Virus record (IMG/VR): IMGVR_UViG_2775506840_000002
Location: 1 to 64,000 of that record
Source: a virus
Lineage: Duplodnaviria; Caudoviricetes
DNA length: 64,000 nucleotides
Direction: 5' to 3' (one strand)
Shown one piece after another: positions 29,425-63,440 of this stretch (the first letter of the stretch is position 1; each line of letters starts with the position of its first letter). Below the pieces are notes generated by a model that saw only the letters and a list, made by a program, of their open reading frames with translations, was not told where the DNA came from and did not search any database. Made by a program: the position numbers and the translations under genes.

Positions 29425-30312
29425 ATGAGTCTTACATTAACGGGTTATTCTAAAAGTCATAGATTATGTGAAAGTTATTTTTTTGTTAATGGACATAAAT
29501 TAGAACATTTTAGAATAGTAAACAAAGGTTATATCAGTTATTCAGATTTGAATGATTGTGTATTTAACTATAGATTGCGACAATATTCTTTTGAGGAACT
29601 AATAGCCAATGATGCTTTTGAACTAGAAATAGCTGATTGTTATACTAGTATTATGTCCAGTGAAATGTTTTGTATGGAATTAAAAGATAGATTTATTTTT
29701 AGGTTATTAGAAACCTTAGAAAATAGTATTAACAAAGCAAGGCTTGAAACAATTAATGCTTCAAGTAAATTTAGCATGGATTTTCTAAATAGTGATATAT
29801 CGTGTCATATGTATGGGTGGTACTATCGTCAACGCTGTTATCAAGCCATTAATGCTATAAATACATATAACTCTATATTTGACATCCTAATGCAATTAAT
29901 TTGGATATATGAGTATTCGTCCCCTCATTCAAGTTCCTTTACATCTATTTTAAAAGAATATAATCGAAATAAATTTATTGCGAAGTATGAACATAAAACT
30001 GACGTTTATAACTTATTCTTCACTAAAAGATATAAGAGAAGTAAAAAATTCCATGATACGAACTCTGAATATGCAACTATAAGAAACTGGTGTAATACTA
30101 TTAAACATAGTGGCAATTTAGAATTTGAGGGAAATAGATTTATGGATAAACCAACATCTAAAGTTATTCTAAATAATGGTGATATACATTCTAGTACAGA
30201 TGCAGAGTATACTTATTTAGATTTAGATCTAGAAGTTATCCCAGAACTTCTAAGCTATCATAAAGCAATTTATGATTTATCTGAAAAAGTTATAGCATAT
30301 ATTTCTAAATAG
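29425..30312 (+). CDS. HEPN-like (Cthe_2314-type) cargo protein
   Basis: AINTYNSIFDILMQLIW and IRNWCNTIKHSG motifs; own promoter and terminator. Confidence 0.6.
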   Translation: MSLTLTGYSKSHRLCESYFFVNGHKLEHFRIVNKGYISYSDLNDCVFNYRLRQYSFEELIANDAFELEIADCYTSIMSSEMFCMELKDRFIFRLLETLENSINKARLETINASSKFSMDFLNSDISCHMYGWYYRQRCYQAINAINTYNSIFDILMQLIWIYEYSSPHSSSFTSILKEYNRNKFIAKYEHKTDVYNLFFTKRYKRSKKFHDTNSEYATIRNWCNTIKHSGNLEFEGNRFMDKPTSKVILNNGDIHSSTDAEYTYLDLDLEVIPELLSYHKAIYDLSEKVIAYISK

Positions 30313-31384: not shown

Positions 31385-31693
31385 ATGTCTTCTGATTTAG
31401 AAACTTTAGCAAATCAAAATCCTAATGATCCTAAATTATTTAATTTGCTAAGTGAAAATGAAAAAGAAATATTACTTAAATGGATTGATGATAATTTCTC
31501 TCCTATCCAGTCATTTTTAACTTCAAAAACTTCATACGGTTTAAAGCAAACTTTTGATAGAACTCATTTTTATGTTTGTAATGGAGTATTTAAAGGCGCA
31601 ATGCTTGAAGCTGGATATAAAGTAAAAAATACCGATGATATCAATTGGATATTTAACATTTCTAAAAAATCTCCATACTTTTCGCTTAAATAA
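31385..31693 (+). CDS. Conserved hypothetical cargo protein (TSYGLK..YV.NG.FKGAML family)
   Basis: RBS, own promoter and downstream hairpin. Confidence 0.65.
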   Translation: MSSDLETLANQNPNDPKLFNLLSENEKEILLKWIDDNFSPIQSFLTSKTSYGLKQTFDRTHFYVCNGVFKGAMLEAGYKVKNTDDINWIFNISKKSPYFSLK

Positions 31694-31832: not shown

Positions 31833-32000
31833 CTAACTATTGTAATATACAACTCTTTTTCTAGAATCTTCTTTTACCTTTTTGCGATATCTTCTTGCAC
31901 TACCCTTAACACCTTTTAATTGCCACTCTGTCAACTCTTTGCCATTGAGTGCCTTATCTACTAGCACTAAAAAGTTTTCTGTTACTGGATACTTTTTCAT
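31833..32000 (-). CDS. Small basic hypothetical protein (55 aa, not in ORF track)
   Basis: RBS gaggt then MKKYPVTENF... Confidence 0.5.
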   Translation of the reverse strand: MKKYPVTENFLVLVDKALNGKELTEWQLKGVKGSARRYRKKVKEDSRKRVVYYNS

Positions 32001-32011
32001 AATCTGTTACC

Positions 32012-32383
32012 TCACCTCAAGTTATTCATTTTTTCCTCTCTCCACTCCGTATACTCTGTTTTCTCTTTCAAATTAAGATTGGCCTTCTCTTCCATTCTCT
32101 TTGTGGTTTCTTCCAGTTCTTGAAGTGTTATAACTCTACTGTTTATACATTCTAAATGTTCTTCCATTCTGTCCTGGTACCTCTGCAATCTTTTGGATCC
32201 AAAACCAAACTCATCATGCAAAGTAATCATTGAAGCTGCTACTATGGTACGTATTGCTATATTTCCAAAAGCTTCTCTATCACGTTGTACCTTTTCTTGT
32301 GCTATTTTATCAGCAACTTCTACTGTCATTTTAGCCATGCTTCTGGCATTACCTTTTTGTTGATATGGTTTAAACCTTTTCAT
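32012..32383 (-). CDS. Hypothetical phage protein
   Basis: LHDEFGFGSKRLQR motif common in Firmicute phage early genes. Confidence 0.7.
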   Translation of the reverse strand: MKRFKPYQQKGNARSMAKMTVEVADKIAQEKVQRDREAFGNIAIRTIVAASMITLHDEFGFGSKRLQRYQDRMEEHLECINSRVITLQELEETTKRMEEKANLNLKEKTEYTEWREEKMNNLR

Positions 32384-32732
32384 GTGTATTCCCCTTTCTG
32401 TATTCCTTTCTTAATAACTCATTCATTCTTCAGTTACTTTCTAAAAACAATCTCTTATAGCACTGAAATTCCAGCGTTATTTGGTTAGATCTCTCCTTTA
32501 ACATCAAAAATTACATTTTTTCTTATATTTTTTTTGAACAATATATTATAGGGTACTCACCCTACTAGGCCTATTTAGGTCTATTTTTTTTGCCTTTTTC
32601 TAAAAAGGAAAATATTTTCCTACTCTTTTTCTATCTTCTTTGTGCCACCGCACAGAGGAGATTTTTTTTTGGAATCGCACGTGTAAATGCACCTTTTCCT
32701 CAAGTAATGACATTCACAAAGGAGGTCGTACA

Positions 32733-32996
32733 ATGAATAAACAACGACAAGAAAAAATCAAATATCCAAACAAAGAAATAAAGCAAATAGCGGAAAAACT
32801 AGGATTTGTGTTAACCAAATATCGTACGTTCAACAATCAACTAATCTTTACCGATGGTAAGAACTTCATCTCACACGATGTTGACCAACATAATGGTGGG
32901 TTTTGGAAAATGGCTAAATCTATTAAAAAGCTAAATTTAAAGAATAGTAGATGTGGAACATTCTCTTGTGATTTGAAAACACGTATAGGTGGTTAG
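32733..32996 (+). CDS. Stand-alone Ntox21-type (CdiA-CT-like) RNase toxin domain
   Basis: AEKLGF..FTDGKNFISHDVDQHNGGFWKMA..R.GT...L..RIG; strong RBS aggagg. Confidence 0.75.
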   Translation: MNKQRQEKIKYPNKEIKQIAEKLGFVLTKYRTFNNQLIFTDGKNFISHDVDQHNGGFWKMAKSIKKLNLKNSRCGTFSCDLKTRIGG

Positions 32997-33039
32997 ATTA
33001 TTTATAGGGGAGCAAATCCCCTTTATAGCAACTAATCTA

Positions 33040-33417
33040 CTACTCTAAAACGTACTTGAATCTTAGCCCTTTACTTTTTATGTATCCATCACGGTTTCTT
33101 ATTGCATTTCTTATTGTTTTACTGCTTATAAAGTTATCTTCTGCTGCAGTTTCTGCATCATCGTACTTATCAATAACCTCTCCTGTTTCGTAATCAATTT
33201 GAGCAACCCTATAATTACATAATGGTCTATTAGGACCATCTGCATATGCAAATCTAAGATGTTTATTATTTAGCTTACCGCTATTCTTTACAATGGCGTT
33301 TGTAACATCTACTCTAAATAATCCAAACTTCTCAAGAGCCTCTTTCATACTTCCATATGTTTCAACAACTTCTCCAGTTTCAAAATCTAGTTGATTAAGC
33401 CTTCTTACCATTGGCAT
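33040..33417 (-). CDS. NUMOD1-like tandem-domain DNA-binding protein
   Basis: Two Q.D.ETGEV...Y.S...A repeats. Confidence 0.65.
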   Translation of the reverse strand: MPMVRRLNQLDFETGEVVETYGSMKEALEKFGLFRVDVTNAIVKNSGKLNNKHLRFAYADGPNRPLCNYRVAQIDYETGEVIDKYDDAETAAEDNFISSKTIRNAIRNRDGYIKSKGLRFKYVLE

Positions 33418-38942: not shown

Positions 38943-39100
38943 TTAGTTCCCTCGCTTTTCTTTTTGAATTTACATGTCCAACAATCATTACAAGTTGCAC
39001 ACTTTTTCTCTTTTCCATAATGGCTACACATAGCGCATGCTTTTGAACCATTGCATAAATGATTTTCTTTATCCCAGTTACCACATGTATCACGCTTCAT
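38939..39100 (-). CDS. Cys-rich 53-aa protein (not in ORF track)
   Basis: Start/stop overlaps on both sides; CAMC, CATC and CWTC motifs. Confidence 0.55.
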   Translation of the reverse strand: MKRDTCGNWDKENHLCNGSKACAMCSHYGKEKKCATCNDCWTCKFKKKSEGTK

Positions 39101-40995
39101 TATTCAATCCTCAACTCCTTATCAACTGCACTCACAATAAGGTCGATTACTTGACTTTGAGTTGCTGGAATGTCTGTTACAGATTCTCTATTATCAATGA
39201 ATATAGGCGCATTCATTCCATAGTGTTCACTTAGAACATTTATAATCTCTATACCAGCTTGAACTTGGGCTGCATTATTTGCATTGCTGAAAGGAACTCC
39301 ATTAATAAGTGATTCACAGCACTCTGCAAGTCCACCGTTTATTTGTTGATCAAATAGCTTAAAGCTTACGTTTTTAAACTTGCTATTGATATTAGCTTCT
39401 AGCATTTCTACTTTAGCCTTTGTAAAGTCCTCTATCATGATTTCTACTTGTTCTACATCTGCAAGCTTGCATTGTAAATCCTTAAGTTGCTCCTGAAGCT
39501 CTTTTATTCTTGCAAGCGCTTTAGCATTGGAATCATGCTTAGATACTCTTAATTTGATATTTTGAATATTAATCTCTTCCATTTTGATAGCTTGCTTAAT
39601 GGCTTCATTGTCTACGCTTTCAAATGCTTGTACCTCTTTTTTGAGAACATCTATTTGATTATCTATTTCAGACGTATCACATGGTGTAGTATCTATTGGC
39701 TTCTCAAGTATCTTTTCAACCTCATTAATATTTGATTGAATACTTACTAATTGGCATGCAATCTCTTCAAATCTAGTAGTTAAATTCTGCATGTTCTGCT
39801 GTGTATTTAGTAAATCTGCTTTAATTATGTTTGCTTCATTAAGCAAACGTTCTTGTCTTATAGCTTTCTCTTCTATGTATTTGCTTTTAAGCTTTTCAAC
39901 TTCTTCACTAGGTAGATCCTGTCCACAAGTAGGACAAATAGCTTTATGCTCATCAAAAGTTTCTTCTTCTATTTTCATCCATTCATTACGTCTGTCTGCT
40001 ACTTTTGAAGTAAGGATAACTTCATCTTGTTTTAATGCTTCAATTTTCTTGACAATACTATCTTGCTCATATGTATGATTAGATAACTCACGTTTTAAAG
40101 TTTCTAACCTGTCCTTATTTTGGTTGTATTCTGCATATGTAGATTTATTATGCGCTCTTATAATCTCTTCTTTTGTGCGCTCTAAACTTAGTATTTGATG
40201 TTGTTTTGTACGTATCTCATTAAACTGTGCATCTGTAGCTTCTAATTGTTTTTCTAACTCTGCTTTATATGCTTCTTTTTCATCTATTTTTGCCTGGAGA
40301 ACTTCTAACGGTTCAAGCCCTTCTTCTAGGCTTCTAGTTTGCTCATCAATTCTTGGTGGAATGTTCTCAATATCTGACTTAAGCTTCTTCTTAGTAGCTG
40401 CTAAAGACTTCTTGTATTCATCTGCACTTTTACCTGCTAATGTTTCTTGAAGTTTTTCATAACCCTCTATTTGGTTATCAGCAATATTGCCACATACTTC
40501 AAATAGGAACTTTCTTTTGTCTTGCCACTTCATTGCTTCAAAAGCTAATGGATTGGTTAAAAGCTTAAATGTCTTTTCATTAATAATTTCATTAACGTAC
40601 TCTTGATACTCACTCTTTTTGCAAGGAACCCCATCTATATAGTAGATAGTCTCATGACCACTAAACTCCTGTTCTGCTTGTCCACGCTTCTTAACCCACT
40701 TTTCTCTAAACAACTTTCCTAGTGTGAATGTCTTGCCATTCAATACAAAGTCAGCTGTAACTTCTGTATTAAGAAAATGAATAGGCTCATTGTGTTCTGT
40801 GAGTGGTTTAATCTCGAAGTCCTTACGCTCCTGGCTATCTTTGTCATATAATAACCAACTAAACGCATCTGCTATTGTTGTTTTCCCTGTTCCATTTGCT
40901 CCATATATCCTAGTTTCTGTTGTGTCGAAAAAAATTCTTCTTTCTTTAATTCCCTTGAAATTCTTCAACTCTAGTACTTTTAATAAAAGTTTCAT
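39100..40995 (-). CDS. SMC/Rad50-like ATPase
   Basis: GANGTGKTT, coiled coil with CPTC hook, IFIDN. Confidence 0.88.
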   Translation of the reverse strand: MKLLLKVLELKNFKGIKERRIFFDTTETRIYGANGTGKTTIADAFSWLLYDKDSQERKDFEIKPLTEHNEPIHFLNTEVTADFVLNGKTFTLGKLFREKWVKKRGQAEQEFSGHETIYYIDGVPCKKSEYQEYVNEIINEKTFKLLTNPLAFEAMKWQDKRKFLFEVCGNIADNQIEGYEKLQETLAGKSADEYKKSLAATKKKLKSDIENIPPRIDEQTRSLEEGLEPLEVLQAKIDEKEAYKAELEKQLEATDAQFNEIRTKQHQILSLERTKEEIIRAHNKSTYAEYNQNKDRLETLKRELSNHTYEQDSIVKKIEALKQDEVILTSKVADRRNEWMKIEEETFDEHKAICPTCGQDLPSEEVEKLKSKYIEEKAIRQERLLNEANIIKADLLNTQQNMQNLTTRFEEIACQLVSIQSNINEVEKILEKPIDTTPCDTSEIDNQIDVLKKEVQAFESVDNEAIKQAIKMEEINIQNIKLRVSKHDSNAKALARIKELQEQLKDLQCKLADVEQVEIMIEDFTKAKVEMLEANINSKFKNVSFKLFDQQINGGLAECCESLINGVPFSNANNAAQVQAGIEIINVLSEHYGMNAPIFIDNRESVTDIPATQSQVIDLIVSAVDKELRIE

Positions 40996-43158: not shown

Positions 43159-43611
43159 ATGAAGAAAACTATATCAGAAAGAATAAGAGAAGGTTTAGCA
43201 ATAAGAGGCATGAAACAAGCTGATTTAGTTAATAAAACCGGAATTGGTAAATCCTCTATCAGTACTTATATTTCAGGTTCTTATGAACCTAAACAAACTA
43301 ATATCTATAAAATTGCTAAGGCATTAGATGTTAATGAGGCATGGCTTATGGGGCATGATGTTAAAATGGATAGAGATACCTCAGCCCAAGAACTTAATTT
43401 AACTGCAGCCGAACAGGAACATCTTAAGAGATATAGAACACTGGATGAAAAAGGACAACATACGGTAGATACCGTACTATATATGGAGTATAACCGTTGT
43501 ACCAATGACTATTTAATGCCAATAGCGGCACATAATGATAATATTAACGATGAACAATTAGAGAAAATAAATAGAGATATAGAAAACATTTTACTTAAGA
43601 AAAAAAGATAA
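43159..43611 (+). CDS. CI-like XRE repressor
   Basis: N-terminal HTH; AAH motif near C-terminus. Confidence 0.88.
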   Translation: MKKTISERIREGLAIRGMKQADLVNKTGIGKSSISTYISGSYEPKQTNIYKIAKALDVNEAWLMGHDVKMDRDTSAQELNLTAAEQEHLKRYRTLDEKGQHTVDTVLYMEYNRCTNDYLMPIAAHNDNINDEQLEKINRDIENILLKKKR

Positions 43612-43628: not shown

Positions 43629-44153
43629 GTGATTTGCTTGAATGAATATGAAATTTTATTGCACAAAAGTTCTAAAGAAGGACTTGAAGTATTTGAAATG
43701 GCTTTGGAATCAGATTCTGATGCATTATGTGTTGGTGATACATTAGCCTTAAATACAAGACTATTAAGTACAGTACCCGAAAAAAGATGTACTTTAAGTG
43801 AGGAAGTCTGGCATAGCAAAACAACTGTTGGAAATATAATTGATACTCGTGACATTAATAATCTAAAACAAGAATGTTTTGCACGAAAGTGTTCTTTTGA
43901 AGATTTAATTCCGCTTGATAACATTGTGCAAGCATTACTTAATCACTGCTTAAATTTACAAGATGTATGTGAGTACCTGTGTGTAACAGAAAAGTACTTC
44001 TGTGAAGCAATTGCTTACTATAAGCAAAAATATGGTCCATATTATAGATGTAAAGAATACACATTACATTTTGAACCTTTGTCAGTTATAGGTTCATCAA
44101 AAGGAGATGGTTTAAATGACAGCAGCTCTTTATATTCGAGTAAGTACAGATGA
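43629..44153 (+). CDS. ImmA/IrrE-family anti-repressor protease
   Basis: EKRCTLSEEVWH..T.GNIID..KQE..AR motif; between repressor and integrase. Confidence 0.75.
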   Translation: MICLNEYEILLHKSSKEGLEVFEMALESDSDALCVGDTLALNTRLLSTVPEKRCTLSEEVWHSKTTVGNIIDTRDINNLKQECFARKCSFEDLIPLDNIVQALLNHCLNLQDVCEYLCVTEKYFCEAIAYYKQKYGPYYRCKEYTLHFEPLSVIGSSKGDGLNDSSSLYSSKYR

Positions 44154-45576
44154 TCAGCTAGAGTTCTCTCCTGATGCTCAAAAAAGAGCATTACTTGAAT
44201 ACGCTAAAAAGAATAATATATTAGTAGATGAACAATATATTTTTGTTGATGAAGGTATTAGTGGCACAAGTGCTAAGAAAAGACCTGCCTTCCAAACTAT
44301 GATTGCTACAGCGAAGAAAAAGCCTAAACCATTTGATACTATTTTAGTTCATAAATTCGATCGTTTTGCACGTTCTAGGGAAGACTCTGTAGTATATAAA
44401 AGTCTTCTTCGTAAAGAATGCGACATAAAAGTTATATCTATAACAGAACAAATGGAAGATGATAAATTCAGTGTTATTCTAGAGGCTATGCTTGAAGCTA
44501 TGGCAGAATACTACTCTCTTAACTTAAGTGATGAGGTTATGAAAGGAATGACTGAAAAAGCACGTAGAGGGTTACCACAGTCAGAAGCACCATATGGATA
44601 TAGGCGCGATGGAGATAAATATGTTTTAGTAGATGATGAAGCTGAAATTGTAAAAATGATATTCTCAAAATTTAATAGTGGTGAACTTGGATACGGGGAA
44701 ATTTGCAGGTTTTTACTTCTAAATGGAATTACAAATAGAAAGGGTCAATCATTTACTGTTAGTGGAATAAAATATATGCTAGAAAATCCAATTTATTGTG
44801 GTAAAGTTCGCTGGAACTACTCTACTCATAAAGGTGGGCGTAGGAAAAATCCCAAAGAAGAATGGATCATAACCGATGGTGAGCATCAACGTATTATTAG
44901 CGATGAACTATACCAAAGTGTTCAACAAAAGATTGCTTCATTAAAAAAGGCTCCTGGACACTATACTCCTAATAAAGAAATTAAGCACTGGTTAAGTGGG
45001 CTCTTAAGATGTTCAAATTGCAACAAGGTATTAGTGTATAATAAAGGTTATCATAAGTACCCCTTTTATAGATGTAACGGATATAATAAAGGCGTATGCA
45101 CTACCAGCAATATGGGGCCATTACATTTTTATGAAAAAGAAGTTTTGAAAGCATTATCTCTTAAATTTAATGAGCTTAGCCAAGGACTAGGCAACATAGA
45201 TTCAGTAGTTGTAAAAACAAATAAAGAAACATCCAATAAAATTCTTCTTCAAAAACAGTTAGAAAAGGTTAGAAGAAAATATGAAATTGCTAAAAAGGCT
45301 TATTTGGCTGAAATTGATACTTTAGAAGAATATGCAAACAATAAATCAGATATTGAAAAAGAAGAAAGAGATCTATTAGATAAACTTTCTAAAGAAATTA
45401 GTTCTGAGGATGTATCAAAAATTATAACTTCTAAGTTAGAACATGCCATCCAAATATTAAATGATGATTCAAAAAGTAATACTGAAAAAAATACATTTTT
45501 AAAGAGCTTTATAAATAGTATAGATGTAGATAGAAACAATGATATACTAAAGATAAATATGTACGTAGAGTGCTAA
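44116..45576 (+). CDS. Large serine recombinase (integrase)
   Basis: YIRVSTDDQ, DRFARS, recombinase domain, Zn ribbon LSGLLRCSNC. Confidence 0.95.
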   Translation: MTAALYIRVSTDDQLEFSPDAQKRALLEYAKKNNILVDEQYIFVDEGISGTSAKKRPAFQTMIATAKKKPKPFDTILVHKFDRFARSREDSVVYKSLLRKECDIKVISITEQMEDDKFSVILEAMLEAMAEYYSLNLSDEVMKGMTEKARRGLPQSEAPYGYRRDGDKYVLVDDEAEIVKMIFSKFNSGELGYGEICRFLLLNGITNRKGQSFTVSGIKYMLENPIYCGKVRWNYSTHKGGRRKNPKEEWIITDGEHQRIISDELYQSVQQKIASLKKAPGHYTPNKEIKHWLSGLLRCSNCNKVLVYNKGYHKYPFYRCNGYNKGVCTTSNMGPLHFYEKEVLKALSLKFNELSQGLGNIDSVVVKTNKETSNKILLQKQLEKVRRKYEIAKKAYLAEIDTLEEYANNKSDIEKEERDLLDKLSKEISSEDVSKIITSKLEHAIQILNDDSKSNTEKNTFLKSFINSIDVDRNNDILKINMYVEC

Positions 45577-46710: not shown

Positions 46711-47816
46711 CTAATAGCATACTTTGCAAGCCTCGTATCCTTGTTTTTTAGCATCATCAACTGTTAGTTCTCTGCTTGTTGTATTAATATATCTACAAGC
46801 TTTATAATGATATTTTTTACCTGTTCCAGTTACCCAAACCTTTTGGCCTGTTGATTGTATAGTAGTTGACTCTATAATTGTATTAGTAGGATTTGTTGAT
46901 ATCTGTACATTATTTATAGTATTCGATATAGTATCAACTTTAGTTACTATAGGTGTCTGCATCACTTTACCGTCTACTTTTTGTGTAGATATAGTAAGTA
47001 TTTTCTCATCACTAGTAATAATAATATTGCCATTTAAATCAGTTCTATATGTTTTAATGTCTTTAAGTCTGTCGCTTACTTCTTTATGCGGGTGGCCATA
47101 CTTATTGTCCTTTCCACAAGTAATAACAGCTATTTCAGGTTTTACTTTATCCAAAAACTCTTTACTTGTTGAAGTATTACTTCCGTGATGCCCTACTTTA
47201 AGTACATCTATATCTATCATTTTATCTAAGATAGATTTTTCTACATCTTTGCCAGCCAGCATCTCCTGTAAATAAAAATTCATGCTCATCGTTTTTATAA
47301 AGCATTATTAAACTTCTATCATTTACATCTTTAGATTGACTTTTTGTATTATAAAATTGGAATGTACCATTACCTAAAGTAACTATTTTATCTTCTAATG
47401 GTACACTTGGTTTTAAATTTTTATTAGTAGCAGCTTGAACACAATCTTTATAAGTTTTTGTATCAGCACTACCATTTCCAATTAACACTATGCCAATTTC
47501 GAAGTTCTTGATTACTGCATCTAATGCCCCACAATGGTCTGCATCTGGATGAGTTAATACTATGTAATCTAATTTTTTTACCTCTTGCATCTTAAGGTAT
47601 TCTACAAGAGACTTTTCATCATCATTTTCTGCTCCATCTATAAGCATATTTTTACCGTTGTCTTTAATAAGAATTGAATCACTGTTTCCAGTATCAATAA
47701 AAATGTACTTCAACCGATTGTATAATTTGAATTTGCTGGACATTTTTTGCAAATAATGTATTGGTAATTAGTAATAATGACATAATAAATATCAAAAATT
47801 TACTAGATCTCTTCAC
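46711..47816 (-). pseudogene. Secreted ComEC/Rec2-like MBL hydrolase with two frameshifts
   Basis: Signal peptide, VHF|IDTG, THPDADH, GDA|G and VGHHGS motifs; +1 T near 47700 and 4-bp tggc duplication near 47255. Confidence 0.8.
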
Positions 47817-47922
47817 TTTTATCCCTCCATTTTCTGCTATACTATTTCACAAAGTAATATATTTAATACTTTTAATCTTAAAATAACATTGTCCATAAAT
47901 ATATATTTTTAGTCATATCGTT

Positions 47923-48732
47923 TTATACACTTAATTCTTTTTCTTTCTGATATATTAAATCTAATAATCTATTCTTTATCTCATCTTTATTATGTGCATA
48001 ATGAGATCTAGCATGACAATTTGCACATATTGCCGCTACTGATACTGGGTGATCAGGTCCATTATCGGATAATCTAGTAATATGATGAACTTCTAAATAC
48101 ATATCACCATTTTTTTTTACAAATCCTCTTTCTCCGCACAATTCACATACTCCCTGTGAGCGCCTCATAGCATACTCCCTAATCGCCTTACTCCTTTTCC
48201 TTACATTTATTTTTATTTCCTCACTAGACGCTCCCTCAACAGCTTGCTCCATAGCCTTTTTTCTCAATTCTTCTAATGATTGATTTAGATTACTTTCTGC
48301 TAAATCATTAAAATCACAGCCTACATCTATATTATCAATGGGATTTAATTCAAACACTATTGAATTTCTCTCTCTATTGTTTTTATCTATGGCTTGTATT
48401 ATCTCGTAACCCAGGCACATAAATTCGCCAATATATTTAACATATGCTGATTTTACATATTGAAACAGAAATATAGATTTATTATTTTTCAAGTGATCTC
48501 TTACTGCTTTATTTCCTCTTATAAATTGCATATGCCCTATCTGGCCTTCTCCTGTATACTTAAAGGTTCCATATTTAGTCCAACTATCTGCATATCCAAA
48601 TTCATCTCCTGACTCACCTGTAAATATAAATATACAAGGAAAGTTTGTAGGTGTACTTATTCCACCTTGTCCTTGACCTCCATATTCCATATGAATATTT
48701 TTACGCTTATAAACTTCATTTCTAATAAACAT
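47923..48732 (-). CDS. SRA-like plus HNH endonuclease (McrA-like, putative modification-dependent restriction)
   Basis: GGQGQGGIS..GYAD.W..F.YTGEGQ.G N-domain; CELC..EVHH..CANCH. Confidence 0.8.
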   Translation of the reverse strand: MFIRNEVYKRKNIHMEYGGQGQGGISTPTNFPCIFIFTGESGDEFGYADSWTKYGTFKYTGEGQIGHMQFIRGNKAVRDHLKNNKSIFLFQYVKSAYVKYIGEFMCLGYEIIQAIDKNNRERNSIVFELNPIDNIDVGCDFNDLAESNLNQSLEELRKKAMEQAVEGASSEEIKINVRKRSKAIREYAMRRSQGVCELCGERGFVKKNGDMYLEVHHITRLSDNGPDHPVSVAAICANCHARSHYAHNKDEIKNRLLDLIYQKEKELSV

Positions 48733-48856
48733 AACCTCTCCCTCCTTTATCTGACTATACTATATCATAAAATTTATTAGTATATTTAACTATTTCCTAT
48801 AGTATTCCTCTTTACATGAAAAAGCTAGAACCATAGTCCTAGCTAAAATAATAACT

Positions 48857-51811
48857 CTATTTATACAATATACTTGATTTAGTAACCTTTATGTCTGAAT
48901 CACAATAATTTAAATATGTTGCTATTTCTTCTACATTACTTACTTTAGGCCCAAGTATTACTTCTTCTAAATCTATGTCTTTATTAATTTCTATAAATAA
49001 ATGAGGCACCCTCCATGTAGAAATTTTATCTGTTTGCACATTATTACTCCCAAATCTTATAAGTCTTATTTCTTTCTCATATTTATATTGAGCATATTTA
49101 TACAGAAATCTTACTTGATCTAATATATTGCATATTATTTTTCTCATTGTTATATCTCTTACTTTATCTATACCTAAATCATTTAATATAATACAAATTT
49201 CTTCAAAGATTTTTTCATCTATATTCATAAAATCTTCTTCTATATAACTTACTTTGTATAAACAATTTGTTATTTTATTATTTTCTTTTAGCAAAATATC
49301 CTCATCTTCTTTTAAATTCTCTTCTACCCTATGATATGTAAGACTGTGTTTTTCCTCATTATCAAAAAAAGTATTCTTAAATAGTAAACAACACCCTTCT
49401 CCATTCTCACTATACGTTGTCCACATAGGTAAATTATCTTCAGACTCTGAAAAACTTGTTATATACGTTTGACTATAGTTATTTAATATTTTTCTTCCAT
49501 TTTTTGTACTATCTTCATTATACAAAATATCTATAATATCTTTTATAGACTTATACTGATTATTATTTTTACATAGTAATTCTTTATCTATATGACTTAA
49601 TATATTTTTAAAGACTTCGCCCTCCATTGGATCATTCATATAGACCGAATTGTTTAACCTTAATCGTGGCTTACTTTGTTTATCTAAGTCATTTACTCCT
49701 TTATTAGGTTTAATTAAAAAGTTAATCGTATTCATCTTAGTATAATGACAAATTTTTGAGTCTTGATTTACTATTTTAATTCTTGATTTTTTCAGTTCAC
49801 TAACCTTAATAAATAATTTTATAATTTGTATGTATGTATTCTCATCCTTTAATGTGTTCTTTAGATATTCTAAGAAAGATCTATTGTCTTTCTCTAACAT
49901 TAACAAATTTAATTGATCCTTAATATATTCTTTTGAGTCTATTGGAAACAATTTCATTCTCTCAGTGTAGTAGCCCTTATTATAAGGATTTAATTTAATT
50001 GCATTTTCATAATCTGCCAAAGCTTTTTCTAGATTTTCTAGCCTCCTATATACCTCTGCTCTCTCTTTAAATGCAAGGCTATTTTGGGGATCTAGCTCTA
50101 TTGCTCTTGTATAATTTTTTAATGCTTCTTCATTTTCATCCCATAGACCATATATATATCCTCTGCTATAATATGCATTACTGCTATTAGGCTCTAATTC
50201 TACTATTTTATCCGCATCTTCTAATGATTTTAACTTATCATTTAGTTTATTATATAATATTGCTCTATTACTATAGTATATAGACGTATCAGGTTTTAAT
50301 TCAATTGCTTTTGTATAATCTGCTAACGCTTGTTCTAGTCTCTTGGTTATGCTATATAATATTCCTCTACGATTGTAGTACAATGCATTAGTAGGTTTCA
50401 ATTCAATTGCTTTTGTATAATCTGCTATAGCCTTTTCTTCTTCCTTAAGATCTCTATATAGTACTCCTCTACGGTTGTAGTACAGTGGATTATCAGGTTT
50501 CAATTCAATTGCTTTTGTATAATCCTCTACTGCCTTCTCTTGTTCATTAAGTTCTCTATATAGCAGCCCTCTACTACTGTAGTACTGTGAATTATTAGGT
50601 TTCAATTCAATTGCTTTTGTATAATCCTCTACTGCCTTCTCTTGTTCATTAAGTTCTCTATATAGCAGCCCTCTACTACTGTAGTACTGTGGATTATCAG
50701 GTTTCAATTCAATTGCTTTTGTATAATCCTCTACTGCCTTCTCTTGTTCATTGAGTTCTCTATATAGCGCCCCTCTAAACTTATAGTACTGTGCATTACC
50801 AGGTCTCAATTCAATTATTTTTGTATAATCTGCTAATGCCTTCTCTTGTTCATTGAGTTCTTTATATAGGGATCCTCTAAACTTATAGTACAATACATTT
50901 TTAGGCTCTAATTCAATTGATTTTGTATAATCTGCTAATGCCTTCTCTTGTTCATTGAGTTTTCTATATAGCGCCCCTCTAAGTTTATAGTACAATGCTT
51001 TATTAGGATCTAATTCAATTGCTTTTGTATAATCTGCTAATGCCTTTTCTTCTTCTTGTGACTCTCTATATATCATTCCTCTAACCTTATAATACAATGC
51101 ATTAGTCGGATCTAATTCAATTGCCTTTGTATAATCCGCTACTGCCTTCTCTACTTGTGACTCTTTATATATTAATCCTCTATAAGCGTAGTACTGTGCA
51201 TTAGTCGGATCTAATTCAATTGCTTTTGTATAATCTGCTAATGCCTTTTCTTCTTGTGACTCTTTATATATTAATCCTCTATAAGCGTAGTACTGTGCAT
51301 TAGTCGGATCTAATTCAATTGCTTTTGTATAATCTGCTAATGCCTTTTCTTCTTCTTGTGACTCTTTATATATTAATCCTCTATAAGCGTAGTAGTGTGT
51401 ATTAGTCGGATCTAATTCAATTGCTTTTGTATAATCTGCTAATGCCTTTTCTAATTTTTCTTCTTCTTGTGACTCTTTATATAGCATTCCTCTATAAGCG
51501 TAGTACTGTGTATTAGTCGGATCTAATTCAATTGCTTTTGTATAATCTGCTAATGCCTTTTCTAATTTTTCTTCTTGTGACTCTTTATATAGCATTCCTC
51601 TATAAGCGTAGTACTGTGCATTAGTCGGATCTAATTCAATTGCTTTTGTATAATCTACTAACGCCTTTTCTTCTTCTTCCAACTCTCTATATAGTCTAGC
51701 TCTACTATTATATGCGCTGGCATCCTTTCTATCTAACTCTATTTTTCTTGTATAAATTTCTATCTCTCTCTTAATACTATCAGTAGTTTCTTCCTGCATT
51801 TGTGCTTTCAT
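48857..51811 (-). CDS. TPR-array protein with C-terminal DUF2971-like domain
   Basis: About 17 TPRs; HYT, MNDPMEG, LPMWTTY, EKEIR and ILGPK motifs. Confidence 0.85.
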   Translation of the reverse strand: MKAQMQEETTDSIKREIEIYTRKIELDRKDASAYNSRARLYRELEEEEKALVDYTKAIELDPTNAQYYAYRGMLYKESQEEKLEKALADYTKAIELDPTNTQYYAYRGMLYKESQEEEKLEKALADYTKAIELDPTNTHYYAYRGLIYKESQEEEKALADYTKAIELDPTNAQYYAYRGLIYKESQEEKALADYTKAIELDPTNAQYYAYRGLIYKESQVEKAVADYTKAIELDPTNALYYKVRGMIYRESQEEEKALADYTKAIELDPNKALYYKLRGALYRKLNEQEKALADYTKSIELEPKNVLYYKFRGSLYKELNEQEKALADYTKIIELRPGNAQYYKFRGALYRELNEQEKAVEDYTKAIELKPDNPQYYSSRGLLYRELNEQEKAVEDYTKAIELKPNNSQYYSSRGLLYRELNEQEKAVEDYTKAIELKPDNPLYYNRRGVLYRDLKEEEKAIADYTKAIELKPTNALYYNRRGILYSITKRLEQALADYTKAIELKPDTSIYYSNRAILYNKLNDKLKSLEDADKIVELEPNSSNAYYSRGYIYGLWDENEEALKNYTRAIELDPQNSLAFKERAEVYRRLENLEKALADYENAIKLNPYNKGYYTERMKLFPIDSKEYIKDQLNLLMLEKDNRSFLEYLKNTLKDENTYIQIIKLFIKVSELKKSRIKIVNQDSKICHYTKMNTINFLIKPNKGVNDLDKQSKPRLRLNNSVYMNDPMEGEVFKNILSHIDKELLCKNNNQYKSIKDIIDILYNEDSTKNGRKILNNYSQTYITSFSESEDNLPMWTTYSENGEGCCLLFKNTFFDNEEKHSLTYHRVEENLKEDEDILLKENNKITNCLYKVSYIEEDFMNIDEKIFEEICIILNDLGIDKVRDITMRKIICNILDQVRFLYKYAQYKYEKEIRLIRFGSNNVQTDKISTWRVPHLFIEINKDIDLEEVILGPKVSNVEEIATYLNYCDSDIKVTKSSILYK
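50290..51690 (-). repeat. Intragenic tandem repeats of about 102 bp encoding TPRs
   Basis: aattcaattgcttttgtataatc recurs about every 99-111 bp. Confidence 0.9.
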
Positions 51812-51984
51812 CCTAAATCCTCTTTATTATTTTATTATCAATAATATTATATATATAATTACACGATAGTTCAAGATTTAACAATATCTCTTCCAAGTAT
51901 CTATGATTATTTAGATAATATATTTACAACAATCATTGTATACACCTTTATATGTATAAGAATATCTATTGGCTAGTATATTTT

Positions 51985-53217
51985 CTATCTTATGCCATTT
52001 TTTAATTGTTGTATTTTTCTTGCACAGTTAATTATCAATTTAGGTACATTATTAGGTTTTATTTTATCTTTATCTTTCCATACGCTTAATGTATTTACTA
52101 CACCTTCTTGATTTAGTACTTTAAGTGCTTCTTGATATTCATCTTTAGCTTGAACTTTAGTCTCTTCAACTTCTTTCATCATTCTAAGCAAATCATGTCC
52201 ATATGTAGCACTTGGACACCAGTTGCCACCTAATGCTTCTACTGTTGGCGCTTCACCTTTAAGATAACTAAAGTGCCTTGGATCAAGTGTGTTTGACTTA
52301 GGATATCCATTAACACCCGCATAAAGTGCTAGATGATCTATATGTGCCTTAATACCATCTTCCCATGTATCAAAACGTTTGTGTGCTTCTGCAATGGTGC
52401 AATCATCTTTACCTGATGCAGTTTCTTTTAATCCACATGGATTTCTGTAGGTTTCATCTAACACGCCTCCAAACTTACCATAGCCTGTTTCCTTGGTATA
52501 CTGAACAATAGCTACTACTGGATTAATGCCTACTTTAAGACATTCTTTAAAGTAAATAGATAGATTATCAATAAAAATCTGTTTTGGCTTCTTAACAATT
52601 GCCCACTCTTGACACTGTTCTAATGTTGCTGTAGCTGGACCAATAATAGGTGTGCCTCCTACGTTGCTAGTGCCTAACACTTTTAAGATTCCTTCTCCTA
52701 TACCTCTACCCATTAACTTACGTTCTTCAGATGTATCAATAATTTCAACATCCTTTGAATCAATAAAAGCACACTCCACAATAACAGCTGGCATACTTGT
52801 TTGCCTAATCACTCCAAAATAATCATGTCCCGCATCATTTACTTTTGTATATATTTCTTTAGGACGCTTATTTTGGCCAGTAACTTGATTAATTGAGTCA
52901 ACTATCTCTTGTGCCATCTTTAAACTTGTACCACCAGTTACACTATAAATAACTTCTACGCCATCACCCCCTCCTGCATTGGTATGTATAGAGATAAAAA
53001 GAGCTGCTTTATGCTTGTTAGCAAATGCAACTCTTTCATTAATACTTACAGTTTTATCTGTGTCTCTAGTTTGCAATACTTGAATTCCTTTAGACTCTAG
53101 ATACTCTTTGCAAAACTTGCTAATACTAGATACTAAATCTTTTTCTTTTAGTCCGTTAGCACATGCTCCTGGATCAGAACCTCCATGCCCTGGGTCTAAT
53201 ACAACTAATCTACTCAT
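51985..53217 (-). CDS. Endolysin: Amidase_3 plus glucosaminidase-like domain
   Basis: LDPGHGG, SIHTN and VECAFID; ETGYG..NPCGLK. Confidence 0.9.
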   Translation of the reverse strand: MSRLVVLDPGHGGSDPGACANGLKEKDLVSSISKFCKEYLESKGIQVLQTRDTDKTVSINERVAFANKHKAALFISIHTNAGGGDGVEVIYSVTGGTSLKMAQEIVDSINQVTGQNKRPKEIYTKVNDAGHDYFGVIRQTSMPAVIVECAFIDSKDVEIIDTSEERKLMGRGIGEGILKVLGTSNVGGTPIIGPATATLEQCQEWAIVKKPKQIFIDNLSIYFKECLKVGINPVVAIVQYTKETGYGKFGGVLDETYRNPCGLKETASGKDDCTIAEAHKRFDTWEDGIKAHIDHLALYAGVNGYPKSNTLDPRHFSYLKGEAPTVEALGGNWCPSATYGHDLLRMMKEVEETKVQAKDEYQEALKVLNQEGVVNTLSVWKDKDKIKPNNVPKLIINCARKIQQLKNGIR

Positions 53218-53686
53218 CCATCTTACCTCCTATAATAGTTTCTCCCATTGAATCCACTTTGTCTTTTGCCACATTTAGTGCTTTCGTTATAAAAGGTGGC
53301 AAATCCATACCAGCATGTTGTAAATTCTCTAAGTTACTTATAAACTCTCTTACAAATATCCATGCTAGAGTTAATGCTGTAAATATAATTTTTGTGGCTA
53401 CAACTATTCCTAATGTATTGGCTATCTGAATTAGTCCATAATCAAGCAGTAATGATAGTACGATAAGCATTCCCATACCTATCTTTCTATAGATACCCTT
53501 GATTACAAGCTTACTCTCTACCTTTTCATCCTCTCTAGCACCTGCTGCATAAGCACGTGTGAACAGATCAGCAACCATTAATAAAATTACTCCATATAAT
53601 AGAGGTGTAAAAATCCCAAAATAATTTGCGATGCATAAATTAATTGTTGTAAATATAGCAATTACTACTGATTTGATATCTTCCAT
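53210..53686 (-). CDS. Holin (phage holin 4 family)
   Basis: KGIYRKI and EFISNLENL..G..LP motifs. Confidence 0.88.
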   Translation of the reverse strand: MEDIKSVVIAIFTTINLCIANYFGIFTPLLYGVILLMVADLFTRAYAAGAREDEKVESKLVIKGIYRKIGMGMLIVLSLLLDYGLIQIANTLGIVVATKIIFTALTLAWIFVREFISNLENLQHAGMDLPPFITKALNVAKDKVDSMGETIIGGKMDE

Positions 53687-53788
53687 ATTTCCTCCTTAGT
53701 ACAATACTCTATTTTTAAAAAAGGCATAAAAAATAATGCTATCTCTAGTGCCTTTTCTATGCCTTATTTACTTTCTAAAATCATTCTT

Positions 53789-54010
53789 TTATTTACTTAT
53801 TGCTGATACTTCTTCCAAAGTTAGTGAAAATTGCTGCTGTGTATATCCAAGCGTTTCTGCTGCTTCATCTGCATCAATCCATCCCATAGCTAAAAATAAA
53901 GCTGTTAGTTCTTGCATACCTTGTAAATTTTGTGTGCCTTGATCTGTTGCTGCTACTGCAATTCTTACAAAAATATTTTTTTCCACCATTCCGTTTAATT
54001 TCTCACTCAT
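53789..54010 (-). CDS. Hypothetical phage protein
   Basis: Coupled to upstream gene; XkdX-like position. Confidence 0.55.
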   Translation of the reverse strand: MSEKLNGMVEKNIFVRIAVAATDQGTQNLQGMQELTALFLAMGWIDADEAAETLGYTQQQFSLTLEEVSAISK

Positions 54011-54351
54011 TATTTCATTCCTCCGTTTAATAAAGTATTTTTTGCTGTTTGTGTTGCTAACATTCCTATTGCTTCTTCAATTTGTGTTAATCTTACTTCT
54101 GTCTTATCAGGTGCTATATTTGTTTTATTAGCTTCTTTCCATGTTTGAATTTCTTCAGGCGTTGCACCTTCTTCCCATGATCCATCAACTAGTTTAGGCT
54201 TAACATATCCAACTGTTAATGGCACTGTTGTATATGGCACGTTTACTGGCAATGGCAATTCATTTCCGTGATTATCAAATTGTCTTTCAACTAATCTTGA
54301 TTCATCTTCATAAAATCCATTTGCATCTATTATCCATATTTGTTGCATCAT
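54010..54351 (-). CDS. Tail-fibre chaperone-like protein
   Basis: IDANGFY..KPK....W.EGATPEEI. Confidence 0.6.
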   Translation of the reverse strand: MMQQIWIIDANGFYEDESRLVERQFDNHGNELPLPVNVPYTTVPLTVGYVKPKLVDGSWEEGATPEEIQTWKEANKTNIAPDKTEVRLTQIEEAIGMLATQTAKNTLLNGGMK

Positions 54352-55316
54352 AGAATCACCCTCATATAAATATTTTTCACATTATTATTTGTTGTACATA
54401 TTTCTATTTGTCCATTGCTTCTTATAAAACCATGCACATTTGATGTTGCATCACCTCCAACATCTACACCAGTACATGTCATTGCTAATATGGGATGTTT
54501 TGGTACTATTGTAGATATAGCAACAATAGTATTTTTGCCTGTTGCAAATGTTGAACCATCTGTTTTTGATACTCTAAAACTAATATAGGCCGCTGTATTT
54601 GTTGTATAACAATCCTGAAAATCAACTGTTATACCCGTATTAGGTGTTACATTGAATTGTGTCTTTGAAGTTGCTGCAAGCTCTTTCCACCCACTAAAAC
54701 TATTATTCCAACAATCACCAACATAAATTTTATTACTTGGATTATAGCTACTTAGAGTTGCTTTCCAGTCTGCACCTACAGGGGATCTTTCAAAAGTAGC
54801 AATATAAAACTTATTTGCTTCAGGTTGTCCAGTACAATTTTGATGTATATAATAAATACCTGGTAAAGTTGCATGATTTTTAAAGAAATCTATAACATTT
54901 TGATTCTCTATATTAAATCTTTTTGTCATTGTAAAATCTGTTGTTGCAATTTCTTTCCATGCTGTCCATTGCCCGTCTTTTAAAACTCTCTCTTTTACTT
55001 GGCCTATATTGCCGCCATAAACACATTTTGCTCTATGAAAAACAATGCCACTTTGTATAGGATTAACCTCTAAATACCAAACCCCTCCACCAGGTGAATT
55101 TGTACCCCCTCCAATACGATAACGTTGAAAATCAATCAATGTATTATAGTCTGGATTATCTAACCATTTAGCAAATTGAATTCCTATTTTATCAAATAAA
55201 CCATTGATTTGTTCTTCTACTGTTTTACCATCCGGGCCGAATACAACGTCACTCGATGTATGAGGATATAATTCATCCCCATTATCTGCTTGAAATGCTC
55301 CCTTTAATCTTGCCAT
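54348..55316 (-). CDS. Distal tail fibre / receptor-binding protein with knob-like repeats
   Basis: YPHTSSDVVF N-terminus; WTAWKEIAT and FSGWKELAA repeats. Confidence 0.75.
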   Translation of the reverse strand: MARLKGAFQADNGDELYPHTSSDVVFGPDGKTVEEQINGLFDKIGIQFAKWLDNPDYNTLIDFQRYRIGGGTNSPGGGVWYLEVNPIQSGIVFHRAKCVYGGNIGQVKERVLKDGQWTAWKEIATTDFTMTKRFNIENQNVIDFFKNHATLPGIYYIHQNCTGQPEANKFYIATFERSPVGADWKATLSSYNPSNKIYVGDCWNNSFSGWKELAATSKTQFNVTPNTGITVDFQDCYTTNTAAYISFRVSKTDGSTFATGKNTIVAISTIVPKHPILAMTCTGVDVGGDATSNVHGFIRSNGQIEICTTNNNVKNIYMRVIL

Positions 55317-55327
55317 CCTTTCGCCTC

Positions 55328-55918
55328 CTATCCCATTACCTTAAAGAATATTTTTCTAGATACTGCATTTGTTGTACTCGTTCCTACTTTTATTGAATCT
55401 CCTGGATCTCCTTTTTCGCCTTTAGCACCTGTTGCCCCTGGGTCTCCTTTTGGTCCTTGTGCGCCTGTTGCCCCCGGATCTCCTTTTGGTCCTTGTGCGC
55501 CCTGTGCTCCAGTTGTTCCTCTAAAGTTTCCTCTTTTAGTCCAAGTTGTAGATGCTGTTTTTTCAAATACATCTCCATTAGATGTATTCAGTGCCCAATC
55601 TCCTACTACACCTAATGATGTAGCTGGTGTACCAGTAACATTATGCATTTTAGATCCTGTAACTCCAGCTGGACCTTGTGCTCCTGTTTCTCCTCTTGGA
55701 CCTTGTGGGCCTGCTGCACCTGTAGGGCCTTGTGGACCTATTGCTCCCGTTGTCCCCTTAGGACCCGTTAATTTACCTGCATTTAACTTTTGCTGAAAAG
55801 TTTCTCCATCTGAAAAAGTTACACAATCTGCTGACGTTAATACATCTACTCCTTCAATAACTTCGCCAGTACTTTCATCTATCAATTGTACCCTTACTTT
55901 TTTTAATACTTCTGCCAT
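55328..55918 (-). CDS. Collagen-like tail fibre connector
   Basis: Gly-X-Y repeats; close homologue of 5532..6128. Confidence 0.85.
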   Translation of the reverse strand: MAEVLKKVRVQLIDESTGEVIEGVDVLTSADCVTFSDGETFQQKLNAGKLTGPKGTTGAIGPQGPTGAAGPQGPRGETGAQGPAGVTGSKMHNVTGTPATSLGVVGDWALNTSNGDVFEKTASTTWTKRGNFRGTTGAQGAQGPKGDPGATGAQGPKGDPGATGAKGEKGDPGDSIKVGTSTTNAVSRKIFFKVMG

Positions 55919-55932
55919 TTAAAGTTCACTCC

Positions 55933-56226
55933 TTATTCTTTTATTTCAATCCCCATATTAGGGCTTACTTTTATAATGCCATTACTACTTCCACCACTCT
56001 GCCTACTTGTAACTTTAAAATACATCTTCCCCTTTACTCTATCCTGAACAGGAATATCCGAACCTTCTGGTATAACATATGGACTAGATAAATTCTTGAT
56101 TTGGTTAGCTTGATTATGAAGTGTATCATCTGCTTTTTTCATATTTCTATTATGCACTTCTATATCATAGAAATCATCTTCTAGTGGTGTCTCAAAATCA
56201 TAATACTGTGTACGTTCTATACTCAT
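55933..56226 (-). CDS. Proximal tail fibre adaptor
   Basis: DFYDIEVHNRNMKKAD N-terminus; C-terminal ~55 aa nearly identical to 6132..6812. Confidence 0.75.
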   Translation of the reverse strand: MSIERTQYYDFETPLEDDFYDIEVHNRNMKKADDTLHNQANQIKNLSSPYVIPEGSDIPVQDRVKGKMYFKVTSRQSGGSSNGIIKVSPNMGIEIKE

Positions 56227-58702: not shown

Positions 58703-58713
58703 ATACCCACCTC

Positions 58714-60311: not shown

Positions 60312-60320
60312 ACGCTCCTC

Positions 60321-62384: not shown

Positions 62385-62558
62385 CTTCCCCCTCCTTTTT
62401 ATAGATTTACCAAGGCCTTTGTCTACTTTCAACTTCTATTATGTACATTGCTCTTAAAATCTTAAGTTCACCAGCTGGCATATTGTATACTTTGGAAGGC
62501 TCCCACCCATGCTTCACCCATGCATAGTACATAAGGTTAGCTATTGTATTGCCTTCCT

Positions 62559-62945: not shown

Positions 62946-62985
62946 ATCTGCCTCCTTATATTTAGAAGGCTAGGAATTCCTAGCC

Positions 62986-63426: not shown

Positions 63427-63440
63427 ATATACTCACCACC

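Follow-up and report, generated by a model that had tools for sequence, protein, structure and literature searches.

A free-standing Ntox21-type ribonuclease gene in a Clostridia prophage, its missing immunity partner and the means by which it might be kept silent

We focus here on a small ribonuclease (RNase) gene and its surroundings in a temperate phage whose host is a gut-type Clostridia bacterium. By the window we mean the whole stretch of 64,000 nucleotides that was analysed (G+C 33.1%), with which the provirus record IMGVR_UViG_2775506840_000002, 91,927 bp long, begins. Positions 32384-33039 of the window are an accessory cassette, of the kind called a moron, inserted between two early genes, and the gene that it carries encodes an 87-residue protein, P0001, which on the strength of its sequence is an Ntox21-type RNase domain protein with an intact active site. 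Ntox21 and colicin E3-type ribosomal RNA (rRNA) endonucleases are known as weapons that are delivered into other cells, and to our knowledge every cell that makes one is guarded by an immunity protein that binds it tightly. The locus thus poses the question of how a presumably lethal, ribosome-cutting enzyme is carried safely, and for what. Possible answers are an immunity family still to be described, an RNA that serves as antitoxin to a BECR-fold toxin, or purely cis-acting silencing with a trigger that senses phage. We tentatively favour the last of these, and the coordinates of all features on which the argument draws are collected in Table 1.

P0001 matches the Pfam family Ntox21 (PF15526) with an E-value of 3e-20 and 72.8 bits, against a cut-off of 25. 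The match spans residues 19-86 of the protein and positions 2-70 of the 71-position profile (69/71 positions), reaches 72.4 bits when the profile is applied to the DNA of the locus, and is the sole Pfam domain above threshold. Searched by sequence, the Protein Data Bank (PDB) yields as best match 4ntq chain A, from the CdiA-CT toxin of Enterobacter cloacae, at an E-value of 1.2e-4. The active site of this toxin, CdiA-CT(ECL), is described as D203, D205, H207 and K214, and the enzyme as a 16S rRNase that cuts between A1493 and G1494, as colicin E3 does (PMC9086364). These four residues align, residue for residue, to D49, D51, H53 and K59 of P0001, which are invariant in 22/22 aligned relatives and which, together with G55, G56 and W58, make up the DxDxH...GG.WK motif. 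An AlphaFold2 model built on the alignment of the 22 relatives has a mean predicted local distance difference test score of 87.4. Its top PDB match in Foldseek is again 4ntq_A (E 6.7e-4, probability 1.00, template modelling scores 0.62/0.71, 35% identity), followed in the list by several colicin E3 RNase chains as weak matches (E 0.7 or more), and the predicted fold is of the CdiA-CT(ECL)/colicin E3 RNase type. Some 11 residues, poorly modelled, stand ahead of the first helix of the domain, so that there is no room in P0001 for a secretion or entry domain. We regard P0001 as a putative 16S rRNA endonuclease of the CdiA-CT(ECL)/colicin E3 type, whose toxicity and 16S target we infer. An earlier, sequence-only reading of this stretch had reported an 87-residue open reading frame (ORF) with a strong ribosome-binding site, a retained DxDxH-GG-WK motif, Ntox21 identity and the lack of a delivery domain; the start, profile, alignment and structure results bear out all four, and its observations have proved correct in every point that could be checked. 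A 118-codon frame from a TTG at 32640 was rejected as the start of the toxin, since it begins within a hairpin and has no ribosome-binding site, and antisense frames across the gene were rejected as genes, since they are not kept between the window and a sister prophage (L002). The domain call itself is not new, as the L002 protein carries the NCBI label 'toxin C-terminal domain-containing protein'.

The cassette lies within the early region of the prophage. Read from right to left, the minus-strand genes encode a Cro-like DUF739 protein, Rha, an SMC/AAA ATPase, DnaD-like and DnaC-like proteins and a RecU-like resolvase; the toxin cassette follows on the plus strand and then, again on the minus strand, come YopX, a sigma-70-region-4 protein and the large terminase. 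The toxin gene runs in the direction of the lysogeny genes and counter to the lytic operon; its earlier description as antisense to early genes agrees with the minus-strand position of both neighbours and of the replication genes. Homologues of the right neighbour were found at three other sites (L146, L147 and L148), two of them in further prophage regions of the sister host genome and one in another genome. At these sites the next gene is co-directional and no opposite-strand cassette is present, which identifies the toxin cassette as an insertion. From the left side, a search for an empty site with the left neighbour in IMG/VR gave 19 pattern matches, of which 0 were confirmed. The cassette is absent at the same position in related prophages, runs opposite to its surroundings and has a hairpin after its ORF; a moron, an independently transcribed accessory cassette, is recognised by such absence, by its opposite orientation and by transcription signals of its own. 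The word 'domesticated', which the sequence-only reading had used of the toxin, does not hold, as the gene belongs to an accessory cassette of the phage, an insertion when set against related prophages, and is not a host gene.

Table 1. Positions, strands and properties of the cassette features, the two adjoining genes and the lysogeny genes in the window
Feature	Position	Strand	Remarks
Left neighbour	32012..32383	-	123 residues; phrog_17690 (phage protein, no assigned function); pI (isoelectric point) 9.0; outside the cassette
Divergent intergenic region	32384..32547		Between the 32012..32383 gene (-) and the toxin leader
16-nucleotide stretch	32536-32551		Exactly common to the window and the independent cassette L031; just before the first hairpin
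Small hairpin	32548..32565		AGGGT/ACCCT core; in the scan a weak - strand terminator-like site
Terminator-like hairpin T1	32566..32591	+	Stem-loop 32566-32583; 7 pairs, loop of 4, then 8 T
Terminator-like hairpin T2	32633..32671	+	Stem-loop 32633-32662; 13 pairs, loop of 4, then 8 T
Ribosome-binding site AGGAGG	32720-32725	+	7 nucleotides before the toxin ATG; read from the sequence
Stand-alone Ntox21 gene (P0001)	32733..32996	+	ATG start, 87 codons, stop TAG ending at 32996; product pI 10.0
Hairpin after the toxin stop	33004..33025		Between two convergent genes; core stem 33006-33011 / 33017-33022
Right neighbour	33040..33417	-	125 residues; two homing-endonuclease-like DNA-binding repeats; pI 7.8; outside the cassette
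CI-like helix-turn-helix protein (repressor)	43159..43611	+	
Serine recombinase (integrase)	44116..45576	+	

Stand-alone Ntox21 genes are few, and the same layout recurs among them. An exhaustive HMMER search of 1.84 billion representative proteins gave 651 relatives of P0001 at E 0.001 or better; this search was needed, as a word-indexed one returned 3 proteins including the query only. Among the best 150 of the 651, the Ntox21 domain stands nearly always at the extreme C-terminus and 18/150 are 110 residues or shorter, several of which, from a reading of their sequences, appear to be fragments or to follow a Hint-type cleavage motif. At 29 confirmed loci in representative genomes, the domain ends open frames of 150-2066 codons in 22 cases, lies in short partial frames in 6 and forms a complete small gene like that of the window in one (L002); among 39 metagenome loci the small kind is represented by L031 and L032 (81 residues each) and by the truncated L033. 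At all five stand-alone loci with context (the window, L002, L031, L032 and L033) the toxin is a lone gene on the opposite strand within a phage replication or late-regulator region, and a same-strand downstream ORF is found at 0/5. With roles read from translations, L031 is flanked on one side by DnaC-like, replication and antirepressor genes and on the other by a sigma/ArpU-like regulator, an integrase-like gene and HNH, L032 by VRR-NUC, a regulator, HNH and terminase, and L033 by VRR-NUC and a primase/helicase-like gene. In BLASTP comparisons among the neighbourhoods of the window, L031 and L032, the toxin ORF is the only locally shared protein; the lone opposite-strand layout recurs in unrelated phages. 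A quick maximum-likelihood tree of the C-terminal 80 residues (154 rows, that is P0001-P0153 minus the 50-residue P0068, plus two locus ORFs) places seven stand-alone proteins in one clade with an SH-aLRT (approximate likelihood ratio test) value of 79, the tool's line being 80, and has poor resolution at 80 columns. The label 'stand-alone' requires 3 changes on this tree against 8.9 when shuffled, and 0/500 shuffles were as low. Ntox21 of any kind occurs in 3/401 sampled genomes of the host's order, the toxin matches no NCBIfam family, and a search for its relatives in IMG/VR gave 48 pattern matches with 0 confirmed.

The sister prophage L002, on a contig labelled Holtiella tumoricola, carries the same prophage region as the window. 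The two differ at 48 of 264 nucleotides in the toxin ORF (81.8% identity), as against identities of 94.4-99.2% in the flanking genes, 95.0% in the upstream spacer, 94.7% in the leader and 88.4% in the 43-nucleotide 3' spacer. Divergence begins directly after the toxin ATG, and the 35 nucleotides before it are identical. By the Nei-Gojobori method, synonymous divergence (dS) in the ORF is 0.73 and nonsynonymous divergence (dN) 0.12, giving a dN/dS of 0.17. The dS of five right-flank genes is 0.013-0.048 and that of the left gene 0.215, so that the toxin ORF is an allele much older than its surroundings. On this one pairwise comparison, the ORF carries the signature of exchange between conserved arms and of maintenance under purifying selection, and so sharp an allele replacement between near-identical prophages suggests ongoing diversifying exchange at the locus. 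A 55-residue basic ORF at 31833..32000 (minus strand) was considered as a co-diverging partner and rejected, as 23-nucleotide and 1-nucleotide deletions in L002 cut it to about 23 codons; given this truncation, the frame, which lies between early genes, is dispensable or not a gene.

One alternative account of such a gene is that of an ordinary toxin-immunity pair, with an immunity protein of an undescribed family whose gene lies at another site in the prophage or on the host chromosome; production of the toxin would then be unrestrained, for example for bacteriocin-like release at lysis or for prophage addiction. We consider this unlikely. The immunity candidate at each locus was taken as the first same-strand ORF of at least 60 residues starting -30 to +250 nucleotides from the toxin stop. 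Such an ORF is present at 47/51 other Ntox21 loci, directly downstream of the canonical toxins, whereas the five stand-alone loci have nothing there; the 47/51 count agrees with the background given by the sequence-only reading, that Ntox21 domains are normally the tips of toxins paired with immunity genes. The candidates fall into three families, apart from 2 loci whose partner ORFs were left unassigned. Family 1 (27 loci by a motif filter and 2 of similar appearance; about 150-200 residues) is the commonest Ntox21 partner (L003-L039, L058), has a conserved N-terminal W-R-I-T-K-Y-N-P ... E-W-T-S, is matched by no Pfam model (0/5 scanned) and looks like an uncurated immunity family. Family 2 (6 loci) is CdiI_N, PF18228 (3/3 scanned), and family 3 (10 loci) is a 111-residue family of gut RHS-type loci.

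The searches for these partners covered the provirus record and a 4.7-Mb draft sister host genome, G001. For families 1 and 2 profiles, and for family 3 a sequence, were run against 1,589 six-frame ORFs of the provirus, L002, L031 and L032; there was no match, with best E-values of 0.012-0.56. Imm41 and Barstar are named as Ntox21 partners in the literature (PMC3482391), and neither was found in the 91,927-bp provirus. The draft genome G001 has no match to family 1 (best E 0.37), CdiI_N, Imm41 (best E 0.41), family 3 or Barstar, and its one Ntox21 match is the prophage copy. In the window itself, 43 nucleotides separate the toxin stop from the convergent gene that ends at 33040. The absence of an adjacent immunity gene and of a downstream partner ORF had been noted before, and a cognate gene elsewhere would have spoken against that reading; none of the five Ntox21-tied families tested occurs in the provirus or in the sister genome. 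The hallmarks of a polymorphic toxin, an N-terminal delivery region and a directly downstream immunity gene, are both missing from this locus. Nor is there a same-strand ORF of at least 30 residues with a ribosome-binding site on either side of the toxin that could be a type II antitoxin. PrfH-type ribosome repair has no match over the cut-off in the sister genome, where two PrfH matches are frames of about 355 residues that we presume to be ordinary release factors.

What speaks for an undescribed immunity protein is that the immunity proteins of BECR toxins have little in common (PMC9086364), that even the largest family found here has no Pfam model, that many ORFs of the prophage are unannotated and that, between the window and L002, the left gene has diverged more than the right-flank genes. 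The immediate neighbours are, however, unlikely partners, because the right one occurs without Ntox21 in other prophages and genomes, neither stands beside the toxin in L031 or L032 (where the left neighbour has no homologue), and neither is acidic (compare the pI values in Table 1). Moreover, the toxin alone is common to the window, L031 and L032 neighbourhoods, and as a delivered toxin an 87-residue RNase domain would have no means of entering other cells.

The leader of the toxin gene is rich in terminator-like structures. A terminator scan of 31200-33600 found 3 sites, against 0.9 +/- 0.9 in 50 shuffles. The sequence-only reading had described T1, which the scan confirms as a plus-strand terminator-like site and in which a T-to-C change in L002 converts a G-U pair to a G-C pair; it had missed T2, the stronger of the two. 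An inverted repeat (I4; 32626-32644 against 32715-32733, 74% complementary) sets the 5' arm of T2 against the ribosome-binding region. The 216-nucleotide leader from 32545 folds at -54.5 kcal/mol (z = -4.73, with 0/200 shuffles as good), and in this fold the Shine-Dalgarno bases pair with an upstream pyrimidine stretch. Upstream of the toxin in L031 there are likewise two plus-strand terminator-like hairpins (2 against 0.1 +/- 0.4 in shuffles) and a strong fold (z = -3.45, 0/200 shuffles as good). Pairing of the Shine-Dalgarno bases is predicted in each of the three minimum-energy folds (window, L031 and L032). L031, whose flanks are unrelated, shares with the window the exact 16-mer of Table 1 and a short stretch before the ribosome-binding site, beyond which the leaders of the window, L031 and L032 have little common sequence. 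The 16-mer contains -10-like hexamers on both strands (TATTAT on the plus strand at 32544-32549 and TATAAT on the minus strand at 32545-32550), and the window and L002 show 1 difference in 81 nucleotides from 32484 to 32564. As a wider regulatory motif the 16-mer was rejected, as 0/60 of its exact IMG/VR matches lie near an Ntox21 ORF and the extensions are short and AT-rich. Small leader frames (48 residues in the window, 59 in L031) were also rejected as genes, as they have TTG starts, no ribosome-binding site and cross the terminators; the only upstream same-strand frame in the window, 32590..32736 with a TTG start, runs through both terminators. A hexamer in the spacer between ribosome-binding site and ATG (32726..32735), which seems to match the conserved 16S rRNA bases just 3' of the colicin E3 cut, occurs in the window and L002 and is absent from L031 and L032; it is probably there by chance. 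At the 3' end, the sequence-only reading had let the ORF end in a hairpin, and a 6-bp, G+C-rich stem (inverted repeat I5) is indeed present and conserved in L002, but owing to its short T-run it was not among the terminators called by the scan; clear terminators stand downstream of the toxin ORF in L031 and L032.

Our leading interpretation, held with less than even confidence, is a silent, cis-controlled prophage kill switch that is released by a trigger and serves abortive infection, exclusion or addiction. Without a domain for export or entry, P0001 is confined in its action to its own producer cell. rRNases such as CdiA-CT(ECL) and colicin E3 are lethal without protection, and by analogy P0001 would be so too. 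Survival of the host would then require that the toxin gene be kept essentially silent in cis. Two intrinsic terminators in a structured leader, together with a ribosome-binding site predicted to be paired, could provide this silencing, and convergent lytic transcription may add to it. Once some trigger overcame this control, the RNase would be freed and translation would cease; candidates for the trigger are a superinfecting phage, failure of termination, or a phage factor that binds RNA or acts in antitermination. This would amount to a kill switch made of one gene, of the abortive-infection, exclusion or addiction type. We are led to this reading because the gene is intact and selected, is repeatedly found alone, is oriented with the lysogeny genes and stands behind terminators; the silencing by the leader, the trigger and the benefit are inferred.

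Several points weigh against the kill switch. First, the stand-alone clade is sparsely populated (1-2 members in its 90% clusters, on 1-24 contigs), and this rarity suits a costly passenger as well as a useful weapon. In 50,697 phage records neither tblastn nor megablast found a match to the toxin; it has no family in PHROGs or PADLOC, and its model has no structural match in BFVD at E 0.001 or better. Second, the leader evidence is uneven: that of L032 has no scan-detected terminator, AT-rich hairpins only and a weak fold (z = -1.84, 9/200 shuffles as good). No convincing plus-strand promoter was found: promoter-like hits stand at chance (11 against 10.7 +/- 3.1), and the only 10-of-12 match overlaps the toxin start codon. 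T1 and T2 may therefore just shield the gene from polymerases that read through from upstream, or terminate some other transcript, instead of attenuating the mRNA of the toxin itself as the sequence-only reading had suggested. No run recorded as RNA contains the stretch. Third, immunity proteins are so diverse that a new family would be invisible to profile searches. Finally, selection is measured on a single sequence pair, and the link to defence is drawn solely by analogy.

The leader may also do more than silence. In a type III-like arrangement, short leader RNAs terminated at T1 or T2 would build up, reduce read-through into the toxin gene and inactivate the RNase by binding it. The layout resembles that of AbiF-RCd22, also from a Clostridia prophage, in which, according to the account of that system, a structured non-coding leader and a terminator precede the toxin ORF (PMC12373285). 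The RNase binds RNA, no protein partner was found for it, and its strongly structured leader has diverged by 5.3% against a dS of 0.73 in the ORF. This conservation may, however, simply mean that the leader and the ORF have had different histories of recombination. The tandem repeat array looked for in the leader is absent, with only one 2-copy 21-nucleotide repeat at 76%, and an Rfam scan of the leader found no family, the best hit being DUF805b at 15.3 bits against a gathering score of 35.6 (E 0.62). In addition, the leaders of the window, L031 and L032 share little sequence, and three lineages are too few for covariation. We regard an RNA antitoxin as rather improbable. Of similarly low standing, in our judgement, is the more specific proposal of a terminator-gated suicide ribonuclease, held by RNA-only control (T1/T2, a masked ribosome-binding site and possibly the leader as an RNA antitoxin) with no protein antidote, and released when the antitermination or RNA-binding factor of an invading phage, or a collapse of host termination, allows RNA polymerase and ribosomes to pass. 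If true, this would be the first RNA-controlled system, type III-like or attenuator-only, on a BECR/Ntox21 toxin, and infection would be sensed in a new way, via its effect on transcription termination.

A further alternative is that the RNase has been repurposed, acting on another or narrower substrate in phage RNA processing or host takeover, or that it is a weak remnant being lost. The rarity of the stand-alone clade and the place of the gene within the phage early region would suit this, and as the stand-alone forms are a separate clade, their specificity could have shifted. All four catalytic residues and GG.WK are kept, however, a dN/dS of 0.17 over 48 substitutions speaks against decay, the gene shares its direction with the lysogeny genes and is opposed to the lytic operon, and a double terminator, found independently in L031, suggests that expression must be prevented; we give this alternative little credence. 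An orphan C-terminal cassette held as recombination stock for a full-length polymorphic toxin is highly improbable, for stand-alone toxin cassettes are indeed described at polymorphic toxin loci (PMC3482391) and short partial Ntox21 frames occur at 6/29 genome loci, but all 6 of these have an immunity-type ORF downstream, while the window gene has its own ATG and AGGAGG and sits in a prophage early region, and the sister host genome, with its single Ntox21 match, offers no full-length toxin to recombine with.

Other features of the window deserve mention beside the cassette. Two more plus-strand genes stand among the minus-strand lytic genes: 29425..30312, encoding 295 residues with no Pfam, PHROG or PADLOC match, and 31385..31693, encoding 102 residues (phrog_9576, no assigned function). 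They may be further accessory genes expressed in lysogeny; both lie outside the stretch shared with L002, which diverges from the window left of 31820. The early-region ATPase (39100..40995, minus strand, 631 residues) has SMC_N, AAA_23, AAA_15 and AAA_21 matches, with only AAA_23 and AAA_15 above curated cut-offs; the AAA_21 match, described as a putative AbiEii toxin domain, lies below its cut-off. This ATPase could be of a recombination or a defence type. Beyond the serine recombinase begins another long run of minus-strand genes (46711..64000 and further in the provirus record), which closes with a second recombinase, at 90212..91924 of the record, that is 53% identical to one in L031. The record may hold two tandem elements or intervening host DNA. 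Just outside the lysogeny module, 48857..51811 (minus strand) encodes 984 residues with many TPR repeats and a C-terminal DUF2971.

In the portions of the literature available to us, no phage-borne stand-alone Ntox21 or colicin E3-type RNase is described, nor is the organisation seen here: a phage-borne, free-standing clade without immunity genes, inserted against the lytic direction, with terminator-rich leaders. Were an RNA antitoxin or cis-silencing to prove true, an interbacterial toxin domain would join the prophage-encoded effectors of defence or exclusion.

Among known systems, the closest in the enzyme itself is CdiA-CT(ECL)/CdiI of Enterobacter cloacae ATCC 13047 (PDB 4NTQ), the founding Ntox21, which shares with P0001 the Pfam family, the D-x-D-x-H...K site and the predicted fold. 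CdiA-CT(ECL) forms the end of a very large protein of contact-dependent inhibition, behind whose gene lies cdiI (CdiI_N, PF18228). P0001, on the other hand, is a lone protein of 87 residues; its prophage is of Gram-positive type, and CdiI_N was found neither in the provirus nor in the sister genome. Colicin E3/Im3 is related to the P0001 model in fold, by the weak structural match given above, and unlike P0001 includes domains for receptor binding and translocation as well as an immunity gene next to its own. The MuF toxins of phages are reportedly paired with immunity genes. Like P0001, they are polymorphic-toxin domains in temperate phages of Firmicutes (PMC5576092), but they are fused to an N-terminal MuF (head morphogenesis) domain, whereas P0001 has neither an N-terminal domain nor a partner.

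On the side of defence, the Menshen system is described as using BECR RNase domains related to Ntox21 as phage-defence effectors (PMC12065111). These domains are the C-terminal parts of NsnC in a three-gene system, whereas P0001 stands alone, and PADLOC 2.0, run on the toxin and six other ORFs, found no defence-system model, its only match being a weak homing-endonuclease one to the right neighbour. In layout, a similar system is AbiF(Cd)-RCd22 of a C. difficile prophage, where, as is predicted here, a toxic protein stands behind a structured non-coding leader without a protein antitoxin, and where the leader RNA RCd22 is reported to lower transcription into the abiF toxin gene and to neutralise the toxin (PMC12373285). 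The AbiF toxin is Abi_2/HEPN-like, in contrast to the BECR-type Ntox21 of the window, and no abiF RNA motif was found at the window leader. In function, the model that we propose for the toxin cassette is AbiD1 of Lactococcus lactis, which has no sequence relation to it: a single-gene abortive-infection effector with an unstable mRNA and a poor, structured translation start, which is activated by a phage protein (PMC2661086).

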